From positions 117,383-181,382 of the forward strand of contig CAZCVI010000002.1 of assembly GCA_964502145.1 (NCBI GenBank): a stretch of DNA of 64,000 bases, in the 5' to 3' direction. Shown here piece after piece: positions 4,401 through 29,202 of the stretch; positions within the stretch are counted from its first letter, which is position 1; each line of letters begins with the position of its first letter. The notes beneath the pieces are model-generated. The model had not been told where the DNA came from. It searched no databases and saw only the letters and a list, made by a program, of their open reading frames with translations. The DNA comes from an uncultured Clostridia bacterium. GTDB taxonomy: Bacteria > Acidobacteriota > Aminicenantia > UBA2199. The translations under genes and the position numbers were made by a program.

Positions 4401-5424
4401 ACCGTTGTAATTTTTCATAGAGGTCAAAATCGGCTTGCAGGGAAGTTTCAAAACCAGTCTTCGGCAGAGTGACCTGCCCCCAGGCACGGGTAGCGGCATA
4501 ATAGGCGGGTGTGGCCACAGCCAATGGCCGGGGCGTGGTATAACCGTCGGCTAACACACCGGTTGCAGTGTAACGACTCTCCCGTTTGACGGGACTACCA
4601 CTTTGGGGCACATCCAGTTCAAAGGTTTTTTCCACACCCTGACCAAACACATAACTTCCACCCTGGTTTAATAAGGGAACCCCAAACGTGGCACCACTCA
4701 AGGTCACGGCTGGACCCTGGGGATTATAGTTCCAGCCAAAGGAATTGTTGTTGCGAAGGGTGAACTGGGCACGGATGGAGGAGTGGTTTTTAAAAAAGAA
4801 GAACCGGGCGCGAAAACCCACCAGGGCGTTACTCAACCGCGTGCTGCCATTGTAAAAATTCCCTTCCACCCTGACAATGGTTTTTAGCGGGCCGGACTCT
4901 TCCACGGTCCATAACCCGCTACCGGGAACAGCCAGATAGGTAGTACCACCAGCAGTGACAGAGAAATTTTTTCCCGCTACTACCAGTTCGCTTTTATTAA
5001 AGGTAAAGCTGGTGGTCCCAGTATTCACGGTCAGGTTGGAACTTTGGTTGTTAACAATAATCCCGGTCACTGTAGCGGGTGTAGCCCCAGTGCGCAGGGT
5101 AAGGGAAACCGTATCGGTAGCCGGCAGGTCGAGTTGAAAATCCAACAGCAACCAACGAATACTACCATCGGGCCAAACAGCCAATGTACGAAATTGGCAG
5201 GGAATCTCGGTGCTGCCTTGCATAAGTTTGACTGTCGTGGTGCCTGTTTGAAGCCCCTCGGCAAAGGGAATACCGGAAGTGATAGGTTCTGCCGTTTTAG
5301 CCACCGCTTCCCGGTTGGTAACGGTCAAAGCCACATCCAAGGCTGCCAAAAAAAACGTGCAAGAACAAAATATCAGACAAAATACAAAAACCGCCATTAT
5401 CCTCTGTTTGTTCACATTTCTCAT
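1453..5424 (-). CDS. Large secreted multidomain protein (signal peptide; Ig-like/BACON-type beta-sandwich repeats; possible polysaccharide-acting or adhesin-like protein)
   Basis: A 1361-aa ORF. I prefer the start at ATG 5424 (MRNVNKQRIMAVFVFCLIFCSC...). A GGAGG lies 9 nt upstream and a hydrophobic signal/TM segment follows. ITWTSSG...VKIEFSSNNGSSW and SLSWSASS...GSITVSVNPTG repeats are typical of Ig-like/BACON-like domains. The catalytic family was not identified. Confidence 0.55.
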   Translation of the reverse strand: MRNVNKQRIMAVFVFCLIFCSCTFFLAALDVALTVTNREAVAKTAEPITSGIPFAEGLQTGTTTVKLMQGSTEIPCQFRTLAVWPDGSIRWLLLDFQLDLPATDTVSLTLRTGATPATVTGIIVNNQSSNLTVNTGTTSFTFNKSELVVAGKNFSVTAGGTTYLAVPGSGLWTVEESGPLKTIVRVEGNFYNGSTRLSNALVGFRARFFFFKNHSSIRAQFTLRNNNSFGWNYNPQGPAVTLSGATFGVPLLNQGGSYVFGQGVEKTFELDVPQSGSPVKRESRYTATGVLADGYTTPRPLAVATPAYYAATRAWGQVTLPKTGFETSLQADFDLYEKLQRSKVIQADVVSPSGTTGITVWGSLYQDINSWNNYGDLQWGGGCGVYSGNSYDWGYGMFLHFMRTGHMAFLDAARVFVKHEIDFDIYHTNANGTAYNYQKNWETRPSNDSPDNCFGPGRPSHTWVQGYALYWLLTGEPRGKDIYDELVEGMRQYVYESFNINGYIDTDEIRIAGWIVDNLVTQWRMNPNATFHTSDYGTKTIQQALKDVLKGVFDRETAAGGHGYVYANDDPNLSQPLMNCYFLEPAIKAYAEVFKGRDNTYATSLLGLIRRMTTWLMSITFGGDTNELGQYRARQLPYMVDRSLLVQTNGEPTYVFMTLNAAGFCYTETGEVSYRNYMRPAFQDYIRYFLISPGNLYIEDSSLRSPTSYNSNVYPDTEVKVHGWSNRFGQYYFAAENGGAVSSLTLTSPNGGQIWLLGSTHAITWTSSGTIANVKIEFSSNNGSSWSTVASSTTNTGNFNWLVPSATPSTFCLIRISSTTDTGITDSSDAVFTITNVISGITIQLNRAALLFSAVNGSTVTPAQQVFIGSSGTGTLSWSASSDRSWLSVTPISGTGNGSITVSVNPTGLSIGTYSGTITVSDDHAANSPQTIAVTVNNLSGSSSPFGIFETPTEGATVRSSIAVTGWVLDDVGVDAVYIKRAPVSGEENTPVYIGQAIFVEGMRPDVELTYPDYPKNYLAGWGYMLLTNFLPNGGNGSFTLYAVAVDEEGNEVILGTKTITVDNAHAVKPFGAIDTPTQGGLASGRAFLNWGWALTPLPNTIPSNGSTINVWVDGVNLGSPTYNLYREDISTLFPGYNNSGGAVGYFYLNTTGYTNGVHSIQWTVTDNAGNTDGIGSRYMTIFNSGSSRVASQAMDASSVLTNDVLESLTYRTGFNTHGEPLTLVADEKGVRKITLKELEHVEIFFPENSVEIQGYRLSPTGLKPLPVGSTVVNDKRTFYWSPGPGFLGRYRLVFVVKDRAGGSYKNIVEIHITASDSQDVFK

Positions 5425-5831
5425 TTTAACGCCCTCCGTAACGGCGTGTTTAATTCTTACTGGCACGATGCTATTCAAATAACCATTCAAATAATATGAC
5501 CTATAAGAAATTTTAAACATCAAACAAGCGAAAGTCAACCATTAATAAAAAAAAAGTAGGAAGGAAAAATAGAGAACTGTAACGAGAACAGTTGATAATG
5601 TTTTGCCTCTCATAAAATTGGAGTTTTCAAAAGTTTCCTTAGCATTATAATATAACTTGGAAGAAACCGCTGAGCGAAAAATACCATATTCATCCCACGC
5701 AATTGGTGAGGAGGAAAAAGCAGTTATTCGAAGGTGCGTCCGAAATATTCAATCGTAGTAACACCGGGCGAATCTACTGTGAACACAAGGAGGCTGTCCC
5801 CTCCCATCCTCCTGTAACCGTAAACAGTGAT

Positions 5832-7668: not shown

Positions 7669-7711
7669 TTTTTGATTTGACATTTTGTCGTTTATAAGCT
7701 ACCATTATACT

Positions 7712-8056
7712 ATGGCCAACACACAGAGGATTTTGAAAGTTTATATGGATTCCCGCGGTAAAGAGCCTTTTATTGAGTGGTTGGAATCGATAAAGGACCG
7801 TAAAAACAGAAGTAGGATTATTACTAGATTGGATCGTTTGGAAGTCGGTAATCCCGGTGATTCCCGCCATTTGGGTAATGGGTTGTTTGAACTACGCTTG
7901 GACTTTGGCCCCGGCTTTCGGATTTATTATGGTGAAGATGACGCGGTGATCCTAATTTTGCTGGTGGGTGGCGATAAAGGGACGCAATCCGCAGATATCA
8001 AAAAAGCCCAATCTTATTGGAAGAGGTATCAGGAGGAAAAAAATGAGAAATTTTAG
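7712..8056 (+). CDS. Type II toxin, RelE/HigB-like addiction-module killer protein (TIGR02683-like)
   Basis: MANTQRILKVYMDSRGKEPFIEWLESIKDRKNRSRIITRLDRLEVGNPGDSRHLGNGLFELRLDFGPGFRIYYGEDD is the characteristic killer-protein pattern. Its stop overlaps the antitoxin start. The upstream ATG at 7685 is less likely. Confidence 0.75.
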   Translation: MANTQRILKVYMDSRGKEPFIEWLESIKDRKNRSRIITRLDRLEVGNPGDSRHLGNGLFELRLDFGPGFRIYYGEDDAVILILLVGGDKGTQSADIKKAQSYWKRYQEEKNEKF

Positions 8057-8369
8057 AGATTATCTAAAAGATAAATTGGTCGATCAAGCAGAAGCAGTTT
8101 CTTATCTAAATGTCGCCCTGGAAGAGTATGAAAAAGATCACGATGCCGATGCTTTTTTGCTGGCACTACGTACAGTTACCGAGGCAAATGGCGGTATCTC
8201 TGAATTGGCAAAAAAAACCAATCTAAACAGGCAACACCTGTATCGGTCATTATCAAACAAAGGAAATCCCAGACTGATTACACTGGAAACAGTTTTGCAT
8301 GGACTGGGACTCCGGTTGTCTATTGTCCCTCTTGGAAACAAAAGTCTGGAGACGGAGCACAGAGTATAA
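8043..8369 (+). CDS. HTH (XRE-like) antitoxin / addiction-module antidote protein (TIGR02684-like)
   Basis: MRNFRDYLKDKLVDQAEAVSYLNVALEE...ISELAKKTNLNRQHLYRSLSNKGNPRLITLETVLHGLGLRLSIVP is the typical antidote HTH. It is translationally coupled to the toxin, with ATG at 8043 inside the toxin 3' end. Confidence 0.7.
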   Translation: MRNFRDYLKDKLVDQAEAVSYLNVALEEYEKDHDADAFLLALRTVTEANGGISELAKKTNLNRQHLYRSLSNKGNPRLITLETVLHGLGLRLSIVPLGNKSLETEHRV

Positions 8370-8407
8370 ATTTCCTGGCTGTTTCTTCCATCAAGTAGGG
8401 GCTTGAG

Positions 8408-8459
8408 CTGTCTCCCCCATTTTTCCAAGTAGAAAAACTGTGGCCAGTGCTTTACTTCT
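8408..8459. repeat. Right copy of the 52-bp direct repeat
   Basis: ctgtctcccccatttttccaagtagaaaaactgtgGccagtgctttacttc. It is followed at 8449-8498 by a perfect 15-bp inverted repeat (tttacttctttactt / aagtaaagaagtaaa). Confidence 0.8.
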
Positions 8460-8652
8460 TTACTTTATATTTGTTCAATTGCAAGAAGTAAAGAAGTAAA
8501 ACACCGTCCCCTTTTTTGGCCAAGGAATCAATAAATGGCAAATTAAAAGTGCTTCAGCGGGAACCGTATCACCTTTTTTGATCACGTTTTGGCCTTACCA
8601 ATGACATAAATTTTCATACCACCTTTCCTTTATCAAAACAGTCACGTTCACA

Positions 8653-8997
8653 CTATAATGAGAGTACTTTCTTTATGCCCTGTTCGACTTTTTTAAGATA
8701 TTTGGTACCAATTTTCCCGACGAATTCTGTCAATACCTCTTTATCAATGGTAATCAATTGGGAAACGTTTATGACTGAATCCTTTGTTAACGCGGACTCT
8801 TCTTTCTTTAAAAAAACGTTCCCAGGAGCTTCGGCCAATCTAAGATTGCTGGTTATAACCACCACCACAACTGTATTGATTTTACTCCTGTTAAAGGTAT
8901 CGGCCTGCATGACCAGCACAGGTCGTCTGTACCCGGGACCTGAACCTGAGGGTAAATCCAAATCAGCCCACCAAATGGACCCCCGCTCAATTACCAT
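8653..8997 (-). CDS. mazF: MazF/PemK-family type II toxin (endoribonuclease)
   Basis: RGSIWWADLDLPSGSGPGYRRPVLVMQADTFN...VVVVVITSN is the MazF/Kid/PemK signature. Confidence 0.75.
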   Translation of the reverse strand: MVIERGSIWWADLDLPSGSGPGYRRPVLVMQADTFNRSKINTVVVVVITSNLRLAEAPGNVFLKKEESALTKDSVINVSQLITIDKEVLTEFVGKIGTKYLKKVEQGIKKVLSL

Positions 8998-9233
8998 TCT
9001 TCTTTTTGCACTATTTTCAACTGTGCCTGATAAAGCCCTTTATCCATTACCGAGGGATTCGTTTGATCTTCATACAATGCATTTAACTGCTGTGTTACAT
9101 TTTCCTCTTTTTTATCCTTCAGATACTCTTCTATTGCCCTCGCATAAAATTCACTGCGAGTTACCTTTAATTGGTGGGCGATTTTCTCGGCCAATGCAAA
9201 TATATTATCCGGTATGTATACTGCTGTTTTCAT
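8991..9233 (-). CDS. Ribbon-helix-helix antitoxin (MazE/CopG-like)
   Basis: An 80-aa protein, MKTAVYIPDNIFALAEKIAHQLKVTRSEFYARAIEEYL, is RHH-like. It overlaps the MazF start by 7 nt and sits upstream in the same operon. Confidence 0.65.
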   Translation of the reverse strand: MKTAVYIPDNIFALAEKIAHQLKVTRSEFYARAIEEYLKDKKEENVTQQLNALYEDQTNPSVMDKGLYQAQLKIVQKEEW

Positions 9234-9449
9234 GCTTAAAGTATAATCCCAATAGAGGCGAATGTCAAATAAAAAACTTCCCCACGTACCGATGGAAATT
9301 AAGAGGTTAGTTGCGCCAAACTAAGCCCAGGAATTTGGGACATGTCAGTGATTCTCATTATTCTCGTTATTCTTTTTCCTCCCATTCTTCGCATTTTGTC
9401 CTAGGGATTTCCAAACTTTTGGTGGTTGTTCCAGGTGAAACTACAAAAC

Positions 9450-9485
9450 TTGCAGATAAAAGTTGCGTATATTATAGTGCTGATT
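9450..9485 (+). promoter_or_regulatory. Candidate sigma70-like promoter for the flotillin gene
   Basis: TTGCAG-N17-TATAGT. A second possible extended -10, TAGTATAAT, lies near 9494-9502. A GGAGG RBS is present before ATG 9537. Confidence 0.35.
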
Positions 9486-9536
9486 CTAATGCCTAGTATA
9501 ATATATACTTTTAAAAACGAAATGGAGGTTATAAAT

Positions 9537-11594
9537 ATGGAACTATCTTTTATGATTGCAGGTGGTGTGGGAGTTTTTGTTTTTCTCCTGGTGATTGCAT
9601 CCTTCACTAATATTGGCCCGACCCAGGTGGGGTTAGTGATGAAACGGTTCTCTTTAAAAAAGCTTCCTGGAGATAACCCAATCGCGTTTAATGGGGAAGC
9701 GGGATATCAAGCCAAATTGCTAATGCCAGGGTTGCGTTGGAAGTTTATATTGTTATATCAAGTACGAAAATTCCCCTGGGTGCAAGTACCAGCGGGGGAA
9801 ATCGGCGTGATGATATCCCAGATCGGGGCTGCACTCCCTATCGGTGCCAAATCGGCGTTTTATAAAAACGAGTTCGGGAACTTCTCCGACTTAAAGAATT
9901 TTATCTCCCAAGGCGGCCAAAAAGGTGTGCAACGCCCCGTGCTACCTCCGGGAACATTAATTCCTTTTCATCCGGTGGCGTTCCTGGTAATTACCGCTAA
10001 ACAGGTGTATGGCGTACCAGTAGACCCAGAACTGGTCAGATTGGAAGCCAGAACGGGGCGCTTAATGCCCCAATCTTTTGGTCTTGAACCAGACCAATTA
10101 AAACTGGTGATGATCCAACCGGCACCGCATGGCGAAGGCAGTGAATTGATTGATATGGTGGGTATTGTCACTACCTTGGAAGGAGACCCATTGCCTTCTG
10201 GTGCCATTGCCAGCCGCTTGAATGATTTTTACGATATCCAGGAACTGGAAGACGCAGGCAAAGATGATTCCGCCTTAATCGAAGTCCTGCTGGGTAGTAA
10301 AAATGGCTTGCATAACAATTACCAGGATTATCAGGCTTTCTTGGAAAACGGCGGACGCATCGGATTGCAACATGACCCGTTGTTGTATGGTGCATACGCA
10401 TTGAATCCGTTCCTGGTTCGGGTGGAACGTATGCCCATGCTGGTGGTGAAACAGGGTGAAGTGGCTGTTATTAAAGGGTATGTGGGCTTGCCCACCAAGG
10501 ATACTTCGGGTGATAAGTTCAAGTATGGGTCCCTGGTACGACCTGGCCACCGCGGCATCTGGCAAGAACCGTTACGAACAGGTAAATTCGCTATCAATCC
10601 TCGCTGTTACCAACCCGTGATTGTATCCACGGCTATCCTAACATTGAATTGGGCAGAAGCAGTTTCGCGGGCCCATAACTTGGACCGGCAATTATGTCAA
10701 ATTGAAGCTAAAAGTAATGAAGGATTTGTCTTTAGAATTGATCTGCAAGTGCAGATACATGTGGCCGATACCCATACACCACGGGTGATTTCCATGGTAG
10801 GAACAATGGAAAATCTGGTCAACGAAGTATTGCAAGCAGCAGTAGGAAACCACTTCCGCGATAAATTACAAAGTATGCCCGCGGTTGATTTTATTAAGAA
10901 GAGACAGGAAGTTCAAGAACAAGCGCTTATCCATGTCCGGGATCATCTGGCTTTATATCAGGTGGAAACCCGTGGGGTTTATATTCAAGATGTGGTGTTA
11001 CCCAAAGAGTTGGTCAAGGTGTTAACAGAGCGAGAAATCGCCAATCAGAACATCGAAACCTTCAAAAAAGAAAAAGAAGCAGAAGATCAACGCATCGCCA
11101 AACAGCAGGCCATGGGTACGGCAGACATGCAGTTGGCATTAGCCAAGTCGCAGGTGGAAGTGGAAATCAACACCAACCGGGCCAAAGCCCGCAAAGCAGA
11201 AGCGGATGGTGAAGCCACATACATCGAGAAAACGGGTGCGGCGCATGGTGCCAAAATACGTGCGGTAGGGTTGGCTCGTGCCGAAGGTTACGAGGCACAG
11301 GTCAAAGCGTTGGGGCAAATTCCCACGGCATTAGTTAATGCGATTAATGCTCTGTCTGAAGGCAATATGAAGATCATACCCGATGTTTTAGTCACTGGCG
11401 GTTCAGGTTCTCTGGAAGGTTTGGCTGCGACCCTAATAAAAAAATTCACCCCTAAAGCAGAATATCCCGTGGAAGAGAAGCAAAAAAGCGAAGAAATAAT
11501 GGCCAGAACAGCCGATAGGGCTGAAGATAAAGCCATGGAAGATATCGCTTGGTCAGTAAGACCAGAATTCCCAGAGGAAGTACCCACCGTATAA
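9537..11594 (+). CDS. Flotillin-like SPFH/band-7 domain membrane protein
   Basis: Start at MELSFMIAGGVGVFVFLLVIASF, an N-terminal TM helix. The GGAGG RBS sits 7-11 nt upstream. An SPFH core is followed by a long Ala/Glu/Lys-rich coiled coil (KEKEAEDQRIAKQQAMGTADMQLALAKSQVEVEINTNRAKARKAEADGEA), typical of YqiK/flotillin. The ORF-track start at 9426 lacks an RBS. Confidence 0.65.
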   Translation: MELSFMIAGGVGVFVFLLVIASFTNIGPTQVGLVMKRFSLKKLPGDNPIAFNGEAGYQAKLLMPGLRWKFILLYQVRKFPWVQVPAGEIGVMISQIGAALPIGAKSAFYKNEFGNFSDLKNFISQGGQKGVQRPVLPPGTLIPFHPVAFLVITAKQVYGVPVDPELVRLEARTGRLMPQSFGLEPDQLKLVMIQPAPHGEGSELIDMVGIVTTLEGDPLPSGAIASRLNDFYDIQELEDAGKDDSALIEVLLGSKNGLHNNYQDYQAFLENGGRIGLQHDPLLYGAYALNPFLVRVERMPMLVVKQGEVAVIKGYVGLPTKDTSGDKFKYGSLVRPGHRGIWQEPLRTGKFAINPRCYQPVIVSTAILTLNWAEAVSRAHNLDRQLCQIEAKSNEGFVFRIDLQVQIHVADTHTPRVISMVGTMENLVNEVLQAAVGNHFRDKLQSMPAVDFIKKRQEVQEQALIHVRDHLALYQVETRGVYIQDVVLPKELVKVLTEREIANQNIETFKKEKEAEDQRIAKQQAMGTADMQLALAKSQVEVEINTNRAKARKAEADGEATYIEKTGAAHGAKIRAVGLARAEGYEAQVKALGQIPTALVNAINALSEGNMKIIPDVLVTGGSGSLEGLAATLIKKFTPKAEYPVEEKQKSEEIMARTADRAEDKAMEDIAWSVRPEFPEEVPTV

Positions 11595-16215: not shown

Positions 16216-16322
16216 ATAAGGATCGTAGATCATGTTGTGTACTATTTTCAACGTATTATCCAATAACTTTGGCGTAACACATAAGAAAAATAAAATATAA
16301 ACCAAACAAAGGAGATTTAGCC

Positions 16323-16820
16323 ATGAAAGAGAAAAATTTTACGATTACCGAAAACACGAAACCGCAGGATGTAAAAAAAATCAGGGACATTTATACCAAT
16401 TACCTGAGAGTCATGCTCAAGTGTGCTGAAGACCAAGCTTATTTTGTAGAATTTCAGAAGAACACCCGTGATATCCTGGTCAATGAAGTAGGGATGACCA
16501 TCCCGGAAGGAGTCCCAATTGTTCTTGATGACAATGTAAGATGGGCATCACTGGTCTTAAATGCAAAAGGTGCCGATGGTAGCAATTATGTGGTAAAAGA
16601 AATGGAACTGGGTATCAAAGCCTATGAAACTTGGGCTGATGGAGAACTTGAAGCGTCTATTACCCAACTTACCCATGAAGCCTGCGTTGAAGTTGATATT
16701 AAAGCCGAATTCAAGAATTTTACACCAGCAATTCGTATCCCATTTATTGATGTAACCAAGGATTTACTGGGTGAAATTAGCTTTAATAAGAAGACTGAAA
16801 TCGTTTTAACTTGTTGCTAG
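16323..16820 (+). CDS. NHLP-type (nitrile-hydratase-leader-like) RiPP precursor, 165 aa, C-terminus ...EIVLTCC
   Basis: An AGGAGA RBS is present. ...YFVEFQKNTRDILVNEVGMTIPEGVPIVLDDNVRWASLVLN matches the NHLP consensus (...F...L..NP...L.eE.G..lPeGV.v.V.EEn.....LVLP). A Cys-Cys terminal dipeptide is present. Confidence 0.6.
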   Translation: MKEKNFTITENTKPQDVKKIRDIYTNYLRVMLKCAEDQAYFVEFQKNTRDILVNEVGMTIPEGVPIVLDDNVRWASLVLNAKGADGSNYVVKEMELGIKAYETWADGELEASITQLTHEACVEVDIKAEFKNFTPAIRIPFIDVTKDLLGEISFNKKTEIVLTCC

Positions 16821-16834
16821 CCGTTGTTGATTTA

Positions 16835-16870
16835 GTGGGCTTCCCGGTTTTTTTTTATCAGGAAGCCCAC
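16835..16870 (+). terminator. Terminator-like hairpin after the precursor gene
   Basis: gtgggcttcc ... ggaagcccac is a perfect 10-bp stem. The T9 tract is inside the loop rather than after the stem. Confidence 0.45.
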
Positions 16871-16970
16871 TGCGGACTCTGTAAAAAGAAGACTTTTATT
16901 AAACGTGGCTCTTGTTTGGGCATTGACTGATCTTAATTAATAATTTATACTTTAGTATACTTTTTATATT

Positions 16971-17060: not shown

Positions 17061-20000
17061 ATGAAAATTGCAGATTATTTTGTACTGGAGACGCTGTCAC
17101 ACGGACCAAGAGTTACCGTTTATAAAGCAAAAAAAGAAAACAATACTACCTCTGTTGTCTTAAAGGTCACCGAAAAAAAAACAGCCGAGAAACTTGATAT
17201 TGTTCGCTCCCTGGAACATGAATACCAATACATCAAGCAGGTGGATTCCGACTTTGTGATCAAAGGGATTCACTGGCAAGAGGAAAAAGAGGTTGCTTTT
17301 ATCGTATTGGAAGATATTGATGCTCAATCACTTAAACACTTCATCAAGGAGAAACAGCTCTCTATCCCACAGTTTTTGGACCTCGCCAAAAAGATTGTCG
17401 ATGGACTGGCAGCCATACACAGACAAAACATCATTCATAAAGATATCAATCCATCCAATATCATATGGAATCCAGAAACCGGTGGCCTAAAGATAATCGA
17501 TTTTAATATCGCCTCTAAATTCGATTTAAAATTGTCCTACCTGGGCAACCCGGAAAAACTTAAAGGCACCCTCGCTTATATCTCCCCGGAACAAACCGGT
17601 CGCATGAATCGGCGGGTGGACCAACGAACCGATCTCTATTCCCTGGGTGTCACTTTTTATGAAATGCTGACAGGCAAACTGCCCTTCGACTCAAACCAAC
17701 CCATGGAAATCGTTTATGCCCACTTGGCCAAAGAACCCCAATCCCCGCACCTACTAAATGAAGCTATCCCGGAAATTATTTCCCGGATCATCCACAAATT
17801 AATGGCCAAAAACCCAGAAGATCGCTATCAATCCGCTGAAGGCTTAAAATATGATCTGGAAAAATGTGCTCTATCACACCCGCAAACCTTTGCCCTGGGC
17901 GAAAATGATTACTCTGGCAAACTCCAAATCCCGGAAAAACTTTATGGACGTGAAGAAGAATTAGAACAACTTTTAGCAGTGTACCATCGTGTCAGTCAAG
18001 GCAACAAAGAAATGATCCTGGTGTCCGGATTCTCCGGTTCTGGGAAAACCACTTTGGTGAATGAAATTCATAAATCTATTGCCAAGGACCGGGGCTATTA
18101 TATCAGTGGAAAATTTGATCAGCTTCAACGCACGATTCCCTATTTTGCTTTTATCCAGGCACTTAACCAGTTCTGCCAGTTACTGCTGACTGAAAAACAG
18201 GAAGTGTTGAACCTATGGAAAGTAACTATCTTAAATGCCGTTGGCAAACTGGGGAGAATTCTGACCGATATTATCCCCCAATTGGAAGCTGTGATCGGGA
18301 ACCAACCGGAAGTTCCCGAAGTCAACGGTGACGATGCCAAAAAACGGTTTAATTATGTGTTTTTATGTTTTTTAAATGCCGTGGCCACTGTGGAGCATCC
18401 CCTGGTCATGTTTATCGATGATCTACAGTGGGCCGATCTGGCCTCCTTGAGCTTGCTGCAATTGATCATGGAAGACCGGAAAAGTTGCTATATATTCTTG
18501 ATAGGCGCTTACCGGGATAATGAAGTATCCCTCTCCCATCCCTTGATAACCACTCTGGCGGAATTAAAAAAACAAGCTATCCCCATCCATACTATTCCCG
18601 TTAAAAATCTCTCCCGGCAAAATGTGTCGGCGTTGCTAGTGGATACGTTTAAGACCCCAAGGAACAAAAACCAGGAGGAATTGGACGCATTGACCACTTT
18701 GATCTATCAAAAAACACAGGGTAATGCTTTTTTTACCCTTCAATTTATTGAAAACCTTTTTAAGGAAAACCTATTGTCGTTTGATTTTAAGAAATCCAGG
18801 TGGATATGGGATATCAAAAATATCGAAAAACAGAACATTACCGACAACGTGGTGGCATTACTGGTCAAAAAAATTAAAACATTGCCGGAAAAGACCCAGG
18901 AAGTTTTAAAACTGGCCGCCGCTATTGGCAATACCTTTGAATCGCCAACCTTGTCCGTTATTTCCGGGGCAACGGAAGCAGCCCATCGCCAAGCTTTGGA
19001 ACCCTCGTTGGCGGAACATCTGGTCTATCCCATAGATATAGGTATTTACAAATTTGTTCATGACCGTATTCACCAGGCTATCTACTCCATGGTACCCGAT
19101 GAAGACAAAAAACATTTGCATCTCAAAATCGGCAGATTACTGCTGGAAACATTTGACCTCCAGGATACATCAACACTTTCAAAAGAGACGGATCAGCGAA
19201 TTTTTGATACTGTTAACCATTTGAATATCGGAATTGACCTGATCATTGATGAACGGGAAAGAATTCATTTGGCCACACTGAACCTTAAAGCCGCTAAACA
19301 TGCCCGGGTAGCTGCCGCTTTTTCTATCGGTGTCGTGTATGTACGGACTGCCATACGTTTATTACCAGACAATAGCTGGCAGCAGCATTACGATCTGACT
19401 CTGTCCGTGTACAACGAGGCTGTGCTCGCCTCCTACTTATTCTTAAACCTAGCGGAGATGGAAAAATATGTTGAAATCATATTGTCCTCCACGCAAAATA
19501 TTTTACATCGCTCGGTGGCGTATGAATACCGCCTTTTGAGTTTAATCGGACAGAATAAATCCCAACAGGCCGTTGAAGCAATCTTAACCATTTTTAACCT
19601 TCTGGGAGTGACTATTCCCCCCGAACCCAGTGGTCCAGAAACAATGGCCATATTTGGAGAAGTTCAAACCATGTTAACCAGTATGAATCAGGAGACGATT
19701 GCCAATCTTCCCCTGATGACAGACGAAGCGAAATTGCAAGTGTTACGCCTTTTTTATATGGCTGGCCTTTCCTTTATGCATGGCCGTCCAACGGCATGGC
19801 CCTATGTGATCAGTAAAATGATCCATCTTATACTCACTTATGGCTTGACAGCGGAAACTCCCTATGTGATATCTCTTTATGGTGTGATCAAGGTTGTTAT
19901 GGGTGATTTTCCCAGTGCCTACCAATTGGGAGAAATGGCAGGGGAATTATTGGCCCGGGGTATCGGTAATCAAGCCATCCAGGTCAGAACCATCGGCATT

Positions 20001-22337
20001 ATCTGTTTTTATCTGCGGGGGTATAGAACCCATTTTAAAAAAATAGCCAAGGAGATGATGGATACCTACTCCCTGTGCATGGAAGTGGGTGATTTTGAAT
20101 ATGCGGGATATTCATTGGGCAATTACCTCTGGTGCCTCAATCGTACAGATACCCCGTTGGAAGAGGCATATCAGAAAGCATTGAATTGCCGGGAAACAGT
20201 CCTACAATTAAAACAACCCCTTCCGATACCACCCATATTCATTGAAATTACCATTTGCGAGAATTATCTCGGCAAAGCGGTTGATCCGGCTGTTTTGGCT
20301 ATCAACTATGATGAACTTTTTAAAAACCTACCGATTGGTTCTACTGGAATATTTAGTTGTGGGGCCAATATAAAACAAGCGATATTATTCTTCTTTTTTG
20401 AGCGGTACGATAACGTTTTGGAGTTAATGGTTTCAACTGAAAACCAATATAATGCCTTGAATATGCCGCTTACCTATTTTAGAAGCGATATCCACTTTTA
20501 TTTTACCCTGATCTATATTGAACTTTATACACGCAGTGAATCGGAAAGTGAAAAAGAAATCTGTATTACTAAGATAAACGAGAATAGAACTATTATGAAA
20601 CAGTTGGCTGAATTCGGCCCGGTAAATTTTCTGCATAAGTATTACTTGTTGGAAGCTGAATATGGCAGGGTTACCGGTAACAATAATCAAGCGCCAGAGT
20701 TCTATGACAAAGCCATAGAAACGGCTTATGAAAACGAATATATCAACGAGGCGGCCCTAGCCAACGAACTGGCCGCAAAATATTATATCCGGGAAAACCG
20801 CCGCAAATTCGCCACCTTCTACTTCATGGAAGCACGAAACTGTTATGTCCGGTGGGGCGCACTGGCAAAAGTCAAGCATTTGGATGACAACTATCCCAAA
20901 TACTTGAGTCTTGGACTCCCCGATTCTTCCTTGAGCCGCTCCTCCCTCTCCAGTACTTCAACCGGAACCGCTGGCGATTTCCTGGATGTCAAGAGTATCA
21001 TCAAAGCGTCGCAAACCCTGTCTGGTGAAGTTCAGTTAAAAAGCTTGTTGGAAAAATTAATGCAGATATTGATTGAGAATGCCGGGGCCCAAAAAAGTAT
21101 CTTGATCGAAAATAATGGCGGACGCTTGCTCATTCAAGCAGAAGGTAATACCAATGGTGTATCCGGTATTTTGCATGAGCTGCCAGTGGACGAGTCGGAT
21201 AAAATACCATTGTCCATCATCCATTATGTGGCCCACAGTAAACGGCAATTGGTTTTTGATAACCTATCTACAGACCCCAATTATACGACCGACGAATATA
21301 TCCAAAAAAATCAGCCCAAATCCGTGGTGTGTTTTCCCATCTTAAGTAAGGGGGAAGTTTCTGCCATTGTTTATTTGGAAAACAATCTGGTGGAAGGTGT
21401 ATTTACTCCAGCCCGGTTGGAAGTGCTCAATATGCTTTCGTCGCAAATCGCCATTTCAGTGGAAAATACCCATCTGTATGAGACGCTTGAAGAAAAAGTA
21501 AGGCAGCGTACTATTGCATTGCAAAAAGCACATCAAGAACTGGAGAAGAATCATAAAGAACTGGCGGAAAGTCATAGGAAAATCAATGACAGCGTGAACT
21601 ATGCCAGCAAGATACAAGAGGCGGTTTTACCCGGCGAGGAAATCCTCAACACCCTTCTTCCCCAACACTTTGTCTTCTATCGGCCCTGCTCGGTGGTCAG
21701 CGGTGATTTTTATTGGATCAAACCGGTGGGACAAAAAATAGTGGTGGCTACTGCCGACTGTACTGGCCACGGGATTCCCGGTGCCTTGCTAAGTATGCTG
21801 GGCATGACCTTTCTGAGCGAAATCGTGCCCCACCTGGCCGAACAAAACCAACTGAGCGCGGCCAATGTACTGGACCAATTACGCCAAAAAGTCAAAATCT
21901 CCTTGAAACAAGAAGGAAAGGTTCGTCAACAAAGAGATGGGATGGATATTGCGCTGTGCATCATCGATCCTGCGGATAAGCAATTGCAATATGCCGGTGC
22001 TTATAATCCGTTTTACTTGATCAAGGATAATCATCTTCTGGAAACAAAAGCAGACACCATGCCCATTGGTTTTTCCACCAAAGAACGCCCCTTTACCAAT
22101 CATGATGTCAGGTTTGAAAACGGGAGTATGGTTTACCTTTTCTCCGATGGGTACGCCGATCAAAACGGTGAGGATGGCGAGGTGAATTTTAGCAGGGTGA
22201 AATTTAAGAAATTGTTGACGGAAATCAGCAGGGAACCGGTAGCCAAACAAAAAGAAGTGTTAATCCAACGCTTCGAGCAATGGCGGGGTGACCTGCCACA
22301 ACGTGACGATGTCCTGGTCCTGGGAATAAGACTATAA
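17061..22337 (+). CDS. Multidomain signalling protein: N-terminal Ser/Thr-kinase-like domain (degenerate motifs), P-loop (STAND/AAA-like) NTPase, helical/TPR-like region, GAF domain, C-terminal PP2C/SpoIIE phosphatase
   Basis: Kinase-like: VVLKV, HKDINPSNI (vs HRDLKPEN), IIDFNIASKF (DFN vs DFG) and YISPEQ. P-loop: VSGFSGSGKTTLVNE. PP2C: FYRPCSVVSGDFYWI...ATADCTGHGIPGALLSML...DGMDIALCII...LFSDGYADQ. The RBS is GAGGTG. Confidence 0.65.
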   Translation: MKIADYFVLETLSHGPRVTVYKAKKENNTTSVVLKVTEKKTAEKLDIVRSLEHEYQYIKQVDSDFVIKGIHWQEEKEVAFIVLEDIDAQSLKHFIKEKQLSIPQFLDLAKKIVDGLAAIHRQNIIHKDINPSNIIWNPETGGLKIIDFNIASKFDLKLSYLGNPEKLKGTLAYISPEQTGRMNRRVDQRTDLYSLGVTFYEMLTGKLPFDSNQPMEIVYAHLAKEPQSPHLLNEAIPEIISRIIHKLMAKNPEDRYQSAEGLKYDLEKCALSHPQTFALGENDYSGKLQIPEKLYGREEELEQLLAVYHRVSQGNKEMILVSGFSGSGKTTLVNEIHKSIAKDRGYYISGKFDQLQRTIPYFAFIQALNQFCQLLLTEKQEVLNLWKVTILNAVGKLGRILTDIIPQLEAVIGNQPEVPEVNGDDAKKRFNYVFLCFLNAVATVEHPLVMFIDDLQWADLASLSLLQLIMEDRKSCYIFLIGAYRDNEVSLSHPLITTLAELKKQAIPIHTIPVKNLSRQNVSALLVDTFKTPRNKNQEELDALTTLIYQKTQGNAFFTLQFIENLFKENLLSFDFKKSRWIWDIKNIEKQNITDNVVALLVKKIKTLPEKTQEVLKLAAAIGNTFESPTLSVISGATEAAHRQALEPSLAEHLVYPIDIGIYKFVHDRIHQAIYSMVPDEDKKHLHLKIGRLLLETFDLQDTSTLSKETDQRIFDTVNHLNIGIDLIIDERERIHLATLNLKAAKHARVAAAFSIGVVYVRTAIRLLPDNSWQQHYDLTLSVYNEAVLASYLFLNLAEMEKYVEIILSSTQNILHRSVAYEYRLLSLIGQNKSQQAVEAILTIFNLLGVTIPPEPSGPETMAIFGEVQTMLTSMNQETIANLPLMTDEAKLQVLRLFYMAGLSFMHGRPTAWPYVISKMIHLILTYGLTAETPYVISLYGVIKVVMGDFPSAYQLGEMAGELLARGIGNQAIQVRTIGIICFYLRGYRTHFKKIAKEMMDTYSLCMEVGDFEYAGYSLGNYLWCLNRTDTPLEEAYQKALNCRETVLQLKQPLPIPPIFIEITICENYLGKAVDPAVLAINYDELFKNLPIGSTGIFSCGANIKQAILFFFFERYDNVLELMVSTENQYNALNMPLTYFRSDIHFYFTLIYIELYTRSESESEKEICITKINENRTIMKQLAEFGPVNFLHKYYLLEAEYGRVTGNNNQAPEFYDKAIETAYENEYINEAALANELAAKYYIRENRRKFATFYFMEARNCYVRWGALAKVKHLDDNYPKYLSLGLPDSSLSRSSLSSTSTGTAGDFLDVKSIIKASQTLSGEVQLKSLLEKLMQILIENAGAQKSILIENNGGRLLIQAEGNTNGVSGILHELPVDESDKIPLSIIHYVAHSKRQLVFDNLSTDPNYTTDEYIQKNQPKSVVCFPILSKGEVSAIVYLENNLVEGVFTPARLEVLNMLSSQIAISVENTHLYETLEEKVRQRTIALQKAHQELEKNHKELAESHRKINDSVNYASKIQEAVLPGEEILNTLLPQHFVFYRPCSVVSGDFYWIKPVGQKIVVATADCTGHGIPGALLSMLGMTFLSEIVPHLAEQNQLSAANVLDQLRQKVKISLKQEGKVRQQRDGMDIALCIIDPADKQLQYAGAYNPFYLIKDNHLLETKADTMPIGFSTKERPFTNHDVRFENGSMVYLFSDGYADQNGEDGEVNFSRVKFKKLLTEISREPVAKQKEVLIQRFEQWRGDLPQRDDVLVLGIRL

Positions 22338-22381: not shown

Positions 22382-22633
22382 TTATTTAATTTTTTTCCTT
22401 TCCGCATTGTTTTTTAATGCATTGGCAATAATCCATTCTTGCTTTTGTTGATTGGCATCTTCAATGGTTCGGTACTTAAAAACTCCGTGAGGAAAATTCG
22501 GAGGACAAAGACGATTGGCTAAATCCCAGAGTTTAACTACCTGTTTATAGTATTCTTCGTCGGGGTCAAAGCACCAGAGGGCTCTTTCAGCCTCTTGAAA
22601 ATCTTTAAACTTTTGAATTGCCATTTGGGTCAT
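22382..22633 (-). CDS. Small hypothetical protein (83 aa), co-operonic with a nucleotidyltransferase
   Basis: Overlaps the upstream gene end by 29 nt. No recognised motif. Confidence 0.4.
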   Translation of the reverse strand: MTQMAIQKFKDFQEAERALWCFDPDEEYYKQVVKLWDLANRLCPPNFPHGVFKYRTIEDANQQKQEWIIANALKNNAERKKIK

Positions 22634-23099
22634 CCCCCTTTTGTCTCATAAGCTCATATAAAAAGAAGGCATCCCTTTTATCTTCAGATCGAAGAGTATC
22701 TTTTTTTAGTTTGAAAAGAGTCTGCGCTGTGGCCACATTTATTGGAATTTCATCAAAAGTCATAATCTCATATTCCAGATCATCATATGTCGCAAACTCT
22801 CCTAATCTGGCCATAATATCTATATAAAACCCATCTGGAGCGCCATATCGAATTACTGAATACTGATTTAATTCCTCAAAGGTAATATCAAAGATACATT
22901 CATCTTGAAAAACGTCATCTAGTGCTTTTTGAAGCTTCTTGATATTTTCGGAATTCATTTTTACAAATATATCAATATCCTGAGTAAGACGAGGTAAACC
23001 ATGGAGAATAACTGCAAATCCTCCGATTAGGATGTAGTCCACCTTTTCTTTACCTAGAGCTTTAAGTACTTTCAAAAATTTCTCGAATAATTCTGTCAT
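22605..23099 (-). CDS. Nucleotidyltransferase-fold protein (minimal NTase, GG...DIDI motif)
   Basis: VDYILIGGFAVILHGLPRLTQDIDIFV shows the NTase hG[GS]...DxD pattern. Confidence 0.5.
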   Translation of the reverse strand: MTELFEKFLKVLKALGKEKVDYILIGGFAVILHGLPRLTQDIDIFVKMNSENIKKLQKALDDVFQDECIFDITFEELNQYSVIRYGAPDGFYIDIMARLGEFATYDDLEYEIMTFDEIPINVATAQTLFKLKKDTLRSEDKRDAFFLYELMRQKGDDPNGNSKV

Positions 23100-27813: not shown

Positions 27814-29202
27814 TTGATAAATAATTTTAATGAAGGATATGACATGCCTGAAACAAATAATGAACCAAGATTCACGTGCGATTGGATTTTTAATATACTG
27901 GTGGTCTTAAGCGACGGGAAAGTGGTGTGCGGGTGCGCGGACCCTTATGGTCAGAGACCTCTGGGCCATTTACAGGAAAAGGGAATCTACGAGATTTGGA
28001 ATTCTGAGCCAGTGAAACAAATCCGCCGGGATTTGAACGCGGGACATGCCGATTTCTGCGGTCCCTGCGGTTTGAAACGGTTCCTCAAAGAAAACGAAAC
28101 GCTACCACAAGCACCGGAACACCTGGACGTATTACCCCGACTATTTTTGGAACCGACGGTGTTATGCAACCTGAACTGCTTCAAAGCGGTGTGCAGCAAA
28201 GAAGCGGATATCTTAAAATCGCGCACACGGACTATTTTTCCGGTTGAAGAATTTAAAAGTCTTTTAGATCAAGTGTGGGAGAAACTGATCCGCTTGGATT
28301 TTTTTAACTACGGCGACCCTTTTGTTCATCCACAAGCGGCGGAAATGATGGCTTATATTAAAGAAAAATACAGGCATATCTATCTGTATGTGAGTACGAA
28401 CGGATTGATGCTGGATGAAGAGAAAATAAAAATTCTGGCGGCTTCGGGGGTGGATGAGATTACATTTTCGGTGGATGGGGTAGATCAGGAATCGTATGGT
28501 CACTACCGACAGGGCGGGGATTTTAATAAAGTGCTGGGGCTGATGGCCAAAATGGTAGCGGAGCGAAATAAAATAGGTCGCGAAGTGCCTTTTATTAACT
28601 GGCGTTATATTCTGTTTAATTGGAACGATTCCGTTGCGCAGATGAAACGGGCGAAAAAACTGGCGGCCAAAATCGGCGTCGATCGTTTTACCTGGGAAAT
28701 CACGGATCACCCAGTAGAAGGGAAATCGGAAAAATACCAGATCGGCACGGAGGCATGGAAAAAGATATATTATGAAATCTGGGATACGAGCCAAATTGGC
28801 AACGTGGTGAAAAAGAATCGTTTCATGGCAAAAATAAAGGTCTTGTCTGGACGGGTGGATATGGCGGTTGGGGGTGACGCTGTGAATGTCCGGGTGCAAG
28901 TGAAAAACAAGGGGGGCGCACTGTGGCGGAAAGTAACGTGGTCGGGTCGTAGACTGGTTCGCCTGGGCGCACAATGGTATGACAGGGATAAAAAACTGCT
29001 GGACCTGAATTATGCACGGGTGTTTTTAAATAAAGACTTGGGTTATCGGAAAAAAGATATCTTAACGATCACGTTACCGCCATTATCGCAACCTGGGGAG
29101 TATTTTCTGAAGTTTGATATGGTTTCGGAGGGCAATGATTGGTTTGAAAACGGGGGCTCGCCAGTGGTGTGGGTGCCGTTTAGGGTTTATGCGGGGGGGT
29201 AA
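27814..29202 (+). CDS. Radical SAM-like protein with an N-terminal SPASM/twitch-like Cys motif and an atypical Cx3Cx4C core motif
   Basis: The N-terminus LSDGKVVCGCADPYGQRPLGHLQEKGIYEIWNS...FCGPCG resembles the end of a SPASM domain. It is followed by LEPTVLCNLNCFKAVC and DFFNYGDPFVHP / YVSTNG elements. Confidence 0.45.
   Translation: MINNFNEGYDMPETNNEPRFTCDWIFNILVVLSDGKVVCGCADPYGQRPLGHLQEKGIYEIWNSEPVKQIRRDLNAGHADFCGPCGLKRFLKENETLPQAPEHLDVLPRLFLEPTVLCNLNCFKAVCSKEADILKSRTRTIFPVEEFKSLLDQVWEKLIRLDFFNYGDPFVHPQAAEMMAYIKEKYRHIYLYVSTNGLMLDEEKIKILAASGVDEITFSVDGVDQESYGHYRQGGDFNKVLGLMAKMVAERNKIGREVPFINWRYILFNWNDSVAQMKRAKKLAAKIGVDRFTWEITDHPVEGKSEKYQIGTEAWKKIYYEIWDTSQIGNVVKKNRFMAKIKVLSGRVDMAVGGDAVNVRVQVKNKGGALWRKVTWSGRRLVRLGAQWYDRDKKLLDLNYARVFLNKDLGYRKKDILTITLPPLSQPGEYFLKFDMVSEGNDWFENGGSPVVWVPFRVYAGG

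Follow-up and report, generated by a model that had tools for sequence, protein, structure and literature searches.

A kinase-associated YcaO module whose probable substrate is the conserved C-terminal tail of an NHLP-related protein

In the NHLP-Burk systems (TIGR03795, the BMA_0021/BMA_0022 family), NHLP-related precursors adjoin fused cyclodehydratases (Haft, Basu & Mitchell, 2010; PMC2887384). These precursors lack a GG motif, have a leader of length 108 and a suffix of length 11, and, of the two members of every tandem pair, one has a terminal Cys or Cys-Cys (PMC2887384). NHLP leaders are rigid, protein-like domains that YcaO enzymes recognize through protein-protein contacts (PMC12455567), and recognition of a fully folded substrate by a YcaO is therefore plausible. 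The literature that we searched, with most subscription-journal papers outside its coverage, held no experimental work on NHLP-Burk, TIGR03903, TIGR03795, BMA_0021 or kinase-YcaO systems. Here we analyze a stretch of 64,000 nucleotides (hereafter, the window) of contig CAZCVI010000002.1 from an uncultured bacterium of the lineage Aminicenantia (assembly GCA_964502145.1), and in it the gene of a 165-aa protein ending in Thr-Cys-Cys, which lies in a module with a B12-binding radical S-adenosylmethionine (SAM) enzyme, a YcaO fusion protein and a large kinase. On balance, we slightly favor the reading that this protein is a folded, C-terminally azoline-modified and possibly methylated product that acts with the kinase. 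The pairing with the kinase, to which the initial annotation of this DNA had not referred, is the most informative feature of the locus.

The NHLP-Burk thiazole/oxazole-modified microcin (TOMM) system, with its TIGR03882 cyclodehydratase and TIGR03903 kinase, is the closest known and a kinase-associated one, and the window clearly holds a system of the same kind. Its precursor likewise has no GG and a short suffix, ending in TCC, and the kinases beside the Bacteroidota relatives of this precursor pass TIGR03903. Similar ends are found in Sorangium, where the protein of locus L047 terminates in ...FTLFTC and scores 78 bits against TIGR03795 (cut-off 41), and in locus L062, where the protein terminates in ...ALAFTC and scores 39.3 bits. 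The differences are nevertheless substantial. Neither the window protein nor 16 of its relatives matched TIGR03795 at E ≤ 1, with L047 as the positive control, and the window family aligned with the Sorangium members over the NHLP motif-1 region only, at an hhalign probability below 5%. The window protein has a β-rich C-terminal half and is present as a single copy rather than as a tandem or fused pair. The window kinase falls below the TIGR03903 cut-off and carries GAF and PP2C domains, and a B12-radical SAM methyltransferase is added to the module.

The 165-aa open reading frame (ORF), as read from the sequence, starts with ATG and ends in ...NKKTEIVLTCC before a TAG stop codon. A scan of the window with the HMM of the precursor family gave this protein as the only match, and no alternative precursor-like ORF was found in the module or its intergenic regions. 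A word-indexed homolog search of 5.8 billion proteins returned the query itself alone, and a HMMER search of 1.84 billion cluster representatives yielded 44 representatives at E ≤ 1e-3, 18 of them at E ≤ 1e-10. Most are 156-175 aa long, and their alignment spans approximately residue 15 to the final residue. They form an uncurated family of ~160-aa proteins that is conserved from end to end, with the N-terminal consensus NYxxLMxxCAxDxxxRxxFxxNPxxxLxxxVGMxIPxxVxIxLD, the C-terminal consensus LPFFDxxxDxLxExKFxDxxEIILSCC, and invariant residues E93 and P140. Information content reached 2.64 bits per position in the last eight residues, 2.34 in residues 133-157, 2.31 in the NHLP-like part and 1.63 in the middle of the protein. 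The final eight residues, with the pattern E-[IV]-[IV]-[LM]-[ST]-x-C and its heterocyclizable residues, are thus the most conserved segment of the family, and the C-terminal 33 residues are at least as conserved as the NHLP-like part. Of the 44 tails, 29 terminate in Cys and seven in Ala; the penultimate position holds Cys, Ser or Thr in 37, and the position before it Ser, Thr or Cys in 37. This pattern is the reverse of the conserved leader and variable core that are usual in RiPPs (ribosomally synthesized, post-translationally modified peptides).

The initial annotation had described a 165-aa gene with a C-terminal TCC, and had offered two possible substrates, an unusually large core or the C-terminal tail only. 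The gene itself is borne out by the ORF, the Shine-Dalgarno sequence and the family of 44 representatives. As to the substrate, the large core loses its basis, since the ~70 extra residues are conserved and are predicted to belong to a single domain, and it is the tail that recurs as a Cys/Ser/Thr end across the 44 representatives and their longer relatives. Of the four Cys residues of the protein (positions 34, 121, 164 and 165), just Cys164 and Cys165 fall within this family-conserved tail. The initial annotation had also noted no obvious GG or GA site ahead of the last ~70 residues. GG is indeed absent, but a GA occurs at residues 83-84, as does a GS at residues 86-87; both sit in a loop where the family alignment has gaps and lacks conservation, and are therefore not conserved double-glycine-type sites. 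Because no conserved GG/GA site exists, the tail rather than a 70-aa core is the likely substrate, and we consider it probable that the tail is what the YcaO modifies. The conserved pre-tail segment (residues 133-157), whose motif is also present in Bacteroidota relatives of 190-340 aa, is by its conservation a candidate recognition element for the cyclodehydratase.

The NHLP-type label that had been attached to the protein finds only weak support in the single sequence. Against TIGR03793 the protein scored 18.7 bits (E = 0.0012, residues 29-82), below the curated cut-off of 50.9, and its Desulfobacter homolog scored 15.6 bits. This sub-threshold match was the only one in a scan with NCBIfam, and a Pfam scan gave nothing. 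In a comparison with the PDB, the family profile had its best matches in the nitrile hydratase α chain 1v29_A, at E = 3e-4 over profile positions 34-100, and in the NHLP leader structure 8tb1_A, at E = 0.009, and 26 of the 27 PDB matches listed at E ≤ 10 were nitrile hydratase α, NHLP or thiocyanate hydrolase γ chains. This weak but consistent signal between sequence profiles supports a distant relationship of residues ~23-100 to NHLP and nitrile hydratase α. An internal duplication, which would make the C-terminal half another NHLP repeat like those of fused NHLP-Burk pairs, was rejected, since the halves did not match each other in hhalign. AlphaFold2, supplied with the family alignment, predicted one compact domain (pLDDT 92.7, pTM 0.82) composed of an N-terminal strand, three helices and nine β-strands, in which the additional ~70 residues fold together with the NHLP-like part and the β-rich C-terminal half packs on the N-terminal half. 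In this model, TEIVLT (residues 158-163) forms a strand within the sheet, and Cys164-Cys165 protrude at its free end. The solved-structure libraries searched gave no significant match to the predicted domain or to its β-rich C-terminal half.

The putative cyclodehydratase is a 754-aa fusion in which Pfam recognized YcaO (2.3e-91), a DUF4423_like winged helix (7.7e-10, residues 7-82) and ThiF (1.3e-5). It passed the NCBIfam models TIGR03604, with 271.6 bits against a cut-off of 219.25, and TIGR03882, with 158.7 bits against one of 36.9. A YcaO together with an E1-like/RiPP recognition element (RRE) partner, the combination expected of a TOMM system, is thus present in one protein. The acidic motifs GALCEAVER and LELVERD, which we take to be the ATP/Mg-binding motifs of YcaO, were invariant among 20 homologs. 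An earlier analogy to the C-terminal modifications of stand-alone YcaOs, including thioamides, does not agree with this architecture, and no Pfam match to TfuA was present in the gene table within ±10 kb of the precursor. Azoline formation is therefore the expected chemistry, given the fused E1-like/RRE part, the SagD-type YcaO and the lack of a TfuA gene within this distance. No nitroreductase-family/SagB-type dehydrogenase was found in the Pfam gene tables within ±10 kb of the window gene or its relatives, and none was recurrent among 31 loci compared below; a dehydrogenase gene at a distant place in the genome is possible. The 614-aa enzyme encoded at the start of the module showed a Radical_SAM domain and a weak B12-binding match by Pfam.

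Loci related to this module were found by scanning GTDB genomes and JGI metagenomes with the YcaO alignment, and their flanks were searched with the precursor HMM and the window proteins. Tail-type precursors, as detected by the HMM, lie beside a large kinase of 1,300-2,000 aa in 25 of 26 independent loci, and the exception ends at a contig edge. Approached from the precursor side, YcaO, radical SAM or kinase fragments adjoin the gene in four of the five contigs for which DNA was available, including those of Ala- and Pro-ending members. The classical GG-type, Cys-rich NHLP loci L028, L031, L035, L037, L130 and L133 have no adjoining kinase. When every ORF of 120 aa or more in 31 loci was clustered, the large kinase was present in every locus, YcaO in 30 and the precursor in 27, the last as one BLAST-linked cluster that joins the window family to the long Bacteroidota forms. 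The B12-radical SAM enzyme was present in 12 of these loci, and in all close relatives of the module. A KamA-family radical SAM protein (~430 aa, 22 loci) and an FHA-domain protein (~320 aa, 15 loci) were confined to a sister clade. No recurrent protease, transporter/exporter or SagB-type dehydrogenase was found among the 31 loci, nor in the Pfam tables around the window gene and its close relatives. The distances of YcaO and kinase co-vary (r = 0.78, Mantel p ~5e-4), which weakly supports co-inheritance and speaks to co-inheritance alone.

Within the clade of the window, the YcaO proteins are 54-65% identical, and the module consists of the B12-radical SAM enzyme, YcaO, a family member of 158-253 aa and a kinase-AAA_16-GAF protein of 1,760-2,030 aa. 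This module is found again, between flanks that are unrelated, in Desulfobacter vibrioformis DSM 8776 (L006), L085-L087, L165 (Omnitrophota) and L166-L169. Gene order varies, being precursor-kinase-radical SAM-YcaO in L006 and YcaO-radical SAM-precursor-kinase in L168, and the precursor is present in two tandem copies in L167. In the sister clade (Aquimarina and other Bacteroidota, and a metagenome-assembled genome of Limnohabitans), the homologs measure 190-400 aa, often occur in 2-4 tandem copies and have a ...MP(Y/C)FxPxxDML... segment in common; among their tails are EIILTSC, EIILTTT, EIIMTCC, EFIATCT and PIIFSTCT. The KamA-family (aminomutase-like) gene stands directly 3' of YcaO (e.g. 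L022:10239-11546; also L010 and at least 20 other sister-clade loci) and the FHA-domain gene 5' of the kinase (e.g. L022:545-1537), and both are absent from the clade of the window.

The kinase partner is a 1758-aa protein with Pfam matches to Pkinase (7.4e-42), AAA_16 (1.9e-39), GAF (5.1e-12) and SpoIIE (1.7e-22), and its kinase domain retains the catalytic Lys, HxD, Asn and DFx Asp. The TIGR03903 model comprises a kinase, a cyclase-homology and an AAA region in ~1350 aa; the window kinase failed its cut-off of 705.75 with a partial match of 136.3 bits, whose best stretch was the AAA_16 region, and carries GAF and SpoIIE where the model has the cyclase-homology region. In the Bacteroidota, Limnohabitans and Chondromyces loci, the neighboring kinases reach 916-1104 bits and pass the model, and the sister-clade kinase is, going by the name of TIGR03903, a kinase/cyclase fusion. 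A full-length homolog of the window kinase (1825 bits) is encoded in the Desulfobacter vibrioformis module, and others are found in L166-L169. All versions of the module have the kinase-AAA_16 core, and a GAF domain follows it in the clade of the window, whereas the C-terminal output varies. It is PP2C in the window and in L006, L098, L166 and L169; in L167 and L168 it is HATPase_c, and receiver and hybrid histidine-kinase genes come next; L091 has PAS-HisKA-HATPase, L165 has HisKA-HATPase-REC-AraC HTH, and L101 has AAA_35. Such shuffling of outputs on a constant sensor core, along with the FHA partner of the sister clade, is the signature of a signal-transduction protein.

Starting from the observed gene, family, tail conservation, predicted fold and gene linkage, we infer the chemical and signaling steps as follows. 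The fused RRE/E1-YcaO protein would bind the folded substrate, probably via the LPFFD...KF segment and/or the NHLP-like surface, and would carry out, as expected of its enzyme family, an ATP-driven cyclodehydration of one to three tail residues to thiazoline or methyloxazoline. Thr163, Cys164 and/or Cys165 would in this way be converted to azolines, thiazoline being most likely. The rings would remain at the azoline oxidation state, because the module has no SagB-type dehydrogenase, and the B12-radical SAM enzyme would add at least one C-methyl group at or near the tail. The modified protein would itself be the end product and would be retained in the cell, uncleaved, since there is no conserved cleavage site, linked protease or exporter. 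There it would work with the co-inherited kinase-STAND-GAF-PP2C protein, as a ligand or activator or as a phospho-switch partner.

A parallel for the last step is offered by the SiaA/SiaB/SiaC partner-switch module, in which a PP2C phosphatase and a Ser/Thr kinase act on a small protein. Kinase and phosphatase domains beside a small conserved protein are found in the window as well; here, however, both domains are fused with STAND and GAF domains, and the small protein is NHLP-like and paired with a YcaO. That the 165-aa protein is an uncleaved signaling partner of the kinase seems possible to us, at somewhat less than an even chance. More doubtful, and put forward tentatively, is the full proposal that a YcaO-made azoline serves as a true post-translational modification of a folded, uncleaved cytoplasmic protein, whose modified tail would be the ligand or partner switch of a STAND Ser/Thr kinase with swappable outputs (PP2C, histidine kinase, cyclase, HTH).

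Several observations weigh against a modified tail that acts through the kinase. Fifteen of the 44 tails end without Cys, seven of them in Ala, and modification of the very last residue is therefore not essential. In the AlphaFold2 model, TEIVLT is a strand buried within the sheet, which may limit access of the enzymes unless modification precedes folding. Genes for a protease or an exporter could lie at another place in the genome. The kinase of L168 (L168:15648-20957) is degenerate, with HSYMSPIN and NFIGA replacing HRD..N and DFG, respectively; its motifs suggest that it is probably a pseudokinase in an otherwise intact module, and kinase activity is therefore not universally required. The correlation between YcaO and kinase distances may reflect nothing more than the two-clade structure of the data, and the adjacency of the kinase is equally compatible with plain regulation of a biosynthetic operon.

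A near-invariant tail would also suit a conserved small product, more so than a weapon under diversifying selection, and the best-surviving alternative, which we nevertheless consider unlikely, is that the module makes a small molecule, much as the mycofactocin and PQQ pathways do. The protein would then be a scaffold or large leader, from which an unlinked peptidase would clip the last two to four modified residues to release a conserved bis-azoline carboxylate. By analogy, this product could be a signal, a cofactor or a metal chelator resembling fragments of pyochelin or yersiniabactin, and the kinase would sense it or regulate its production. Structured, protein-like NHLP leaders that serve purely in enzyme recognition are known (PMC12455567). 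However, no peptidase, exporter or receptor gene is recurrent in the 31 loci, the Bacteroidota relatives of 190-400 aa in multiple tandem copies would be costly for a mere scaffold, and the products would differ where a tail ends in Ala, Pro or additional residues. In mycofactocin and PQQ biosynthesis, a conserved C-terminal di- or tripeptide of a ribosomal precursor is the sole substrate and a radical SAM protein is among the enzymes, but the precursors are short and a peptidase is clustered with them. The analogy is a functional one, the enzymes being unrelated to those of the window, where no peptidase is linked.

The similarity to canonical NHLP and proteusin systems (TIGR03793, e.g. MprE/MprC; PMC12455567) extends to a structured leader related to nitrile hydratase α and to recognition by a fused YcaO. 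Proteusin-like clusters in addition encode a TIGR03975-type C-methyltransferase, which in the window reaches 437 bits, and this enzyme beside an NHLP-like N-terminal region is typical of them. Proteusin precursors are ~145 aa long, and the window precursor resembles them in length as well. In proteusins, the radical SAM C-methyltransferase and/or epimerase works on a long core of ~40-50 aa. The window precursor would be a classical RiPP of this kind if its ~70-aa core were multiply C-methylated and heterocyclized, cleaved and exported as a bioactive peptide, but we regard this as highly improbable. The window protein has neither the ELSxEELxxVAGG motif nor a long, hypervariable core; the putative core is conserved and predicted to form β-sheet integral to the domain, conserved Cys, Ser and Thr residues are found in the tail only, leaving ~3 modifiable residues, and there is no conserved GG/GA. 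Further, no annotated epimerase was seen in the module by Pfam, NCBIfam or the gene table, no protease or transporter is linked, and TIGR03793 was missed by a wide margin.

Equally improbable is that the protein is no substrate at all but an accessory or regulatory partner, e.g. a metal-binding relative of nitrile hydratase α with Cys-Cys thiolates or a phospho-substrate of the kinase, with the YcaO and the radical SAM enzyme acting elsewhere. The folded, conserved and protein-sized character of the family would fit such a role, as would the tail Ser/Thr, its sole conserved hydroxyl residue, and the C-terminal 285 aa of the kinase protein, which resemble the partner-switch phosphatase SiaA (NCBIfam, 208 bits, below cut-off). 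The module and its intergenic regions offer no other precursor-like ORF for the enzymes, however, and the protein has bona fide TOMM leaders among its homologs. In the sister clade, tandem copies with varied Cys/Ser/Thr tails are precursor-like, and members ending in Ala or Pro would lack the terminal thiolate pair. An anti-phage defence system was rejected, as PADLOC gave generic kinase-domain matches and one weak radical SAM match, and none for the precursor or YcaO.

The pairing with a kinase whose output is swapped between lineages, together with the lack of a linked protease, exporter or dehydrogenase, suggests that the module does not have an antibiotic role. The 'TOMM bacteriocin' branch (NHLP-Burk, TIGR03903), known from sequence since 2010, would accordingly be a signaling or cofactor device. 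If the tail is indeed the only part modified, the module would be a clean minimal system for the recognition of a folded protein by a fused YcaO, with the eight-residue tryptic peptide TEIVLTCC as the readout. If the reading of a modified protein that acts with the kinase is true, RiPP chemistry has been recruited for intracellular signaling rather than for secreted products, and the TOMM annotations of 2010 would need to be re-interpreted. The question is directly testable, as hosts available in culture include Desulfobacter vibrioformis DSM 8776, several species of Aquimarina, and Sorangium.

Table 1. Features of the module in the window (positions count from the first nucleotide of the window).
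Feature	Position	Strand	Basis and remarks
B12-binding radical SAM C-methyltransferase gene, 614 aa	12079..13923	+	First module gene; TIGR03975 at 1e-130, 437.1 bits, cut-off 281.85
Winged-helix (RRE-like), E1/ThiF-like and YcaO fusion gene, 754 aa	13951..16215	+	Pfam and NCBIfam
Shine-Dalgarno sequence AGGAG	16310..16314	+	8 nt 5' of the precursor ATG; read from the sequence
Putative substrate (precursor) gene, 165 aa and stop codon	16323..16820	+	ORF, family profile and AlphaFold2 model; sole family member in the window
NHLP/nitrile-hydratase-α-like region, residues 23-100	16389..16622	+	Three helices, then the VGMxIPxxV segment and the first β-strands
Conserved pre-tail segment, residues 133-157, FTPAIRIPFIDVTKDLLGEISFNKK	16719..16793	+	Consensus LPFFDxxxDxLxExKFxD
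C-terminal tail TEIVLTCC, residues 158-165	16794..16817	+	Proposed modification site Thr163, Cys164, Cys165
Stem-loop with 11-bp GC-rich stem	16834..16871	+	14 nt past the precursor stop codon; fold -28.6 kcal/mol, z = -3.8 vs shuffles
Signaling protein gene, 1758 aa: Ser/Thr kinase, AAA_16 (STAND-type), helical region, GAF, PP2C (SpoIIE)	17061..22337	+	Pfam

With its T-run in the loop and not after the stem, the stem-loop that separates the precursor gene from the kinase gene does not qualify as a canonical intrinsic terminator; it is possible that it acts as an attenuator or mRNA stabilizer. A σ70-like site with a 10/12 match is located at 16923-16951, 5' of the kinase gene. Directly after the kinase gene, on the minus strand (22382..23099), the gene of an AbiEii/DUF6036-like nucleotidyltransferase of 164 aa overlaps an upstream gene of 83 aa, the two probably forming a toxin-antitoxin-type pair.

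Variants of the arrangement were seen in other loci. In L098, L102, L108 and L141, a conserved gene of 360-400 aa (L098:5924-7165, L102:8798-9925, L108:4642-5787, L141:10043-11137) lies between YcaO and a related long kinase-GAF protein, in which Pfam confirms PP2C in L098 only; its product is taken, from the sequence, to be amidohydrolase-like, and no tail-type precursor was detectable in these four loci. Short NHLP-like proteins of 66-118 aa without GG adjoin long kinase-GAF proteins in L091 (8190-8528), L092 (7095-7439), L096 (6402-6740 and 6910-7140) and L101 (7389-7802, minus strand). They end in ...IIIST, ...YLGCSC, ...VTVTCS, ...AQSGC and ...MQLCCI, and look like a minimal version of the tail-only design. 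In L029, two candidate tail-type proteins flank the YcaO (L029:9671-10489 and L029:6405-7598), ending in ...DHVILTCSCC and ...HEICLSST, respectively; neither was matched by the precursor HMM or NCBIfam.

The gene directly 5' of the module (9426..11594, plus strand) encodes a 722-aa SPFH/Band_7 protein that is conserved in identical contigs only and, as it is not conserved in related loci, is probably outside the system. Further 5', at ~7685..9310, the gene calls of the identical contig L001 include two toxin-antitoxin-like pairs, a Gp49-like protein with an HI1420-type antitoxin and a PemK toxin with a small partner. The minus strand also carries genes for a BACON-domain protein (1453..5538) and a Peptidase_S46 of the DPP7/11 type (32686..34866), and the two hint at a host in or near Bacteroidota. 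A 462-aa ORF (27814..29202, plus strand) has a SPASM domain (residues 22-85) N-terminal to Radical_SAM (residues 113-247), an unusual order that may stem from a wrongly called start or from a permuted architecture. A further gene (38071..56889, plus strand) encodes a 6272-aa hybrid non-ribosomal peptide synthetase/polyketide synthase with Condensation, AMP-binding, PP-binding and Acyl_transf_1 domains, in which a Radical_SAM domain, unusual as an in-line domain of a non-ribosomal peptide synthetase, is embedded at residues 1713-1876 (~43207..43698).

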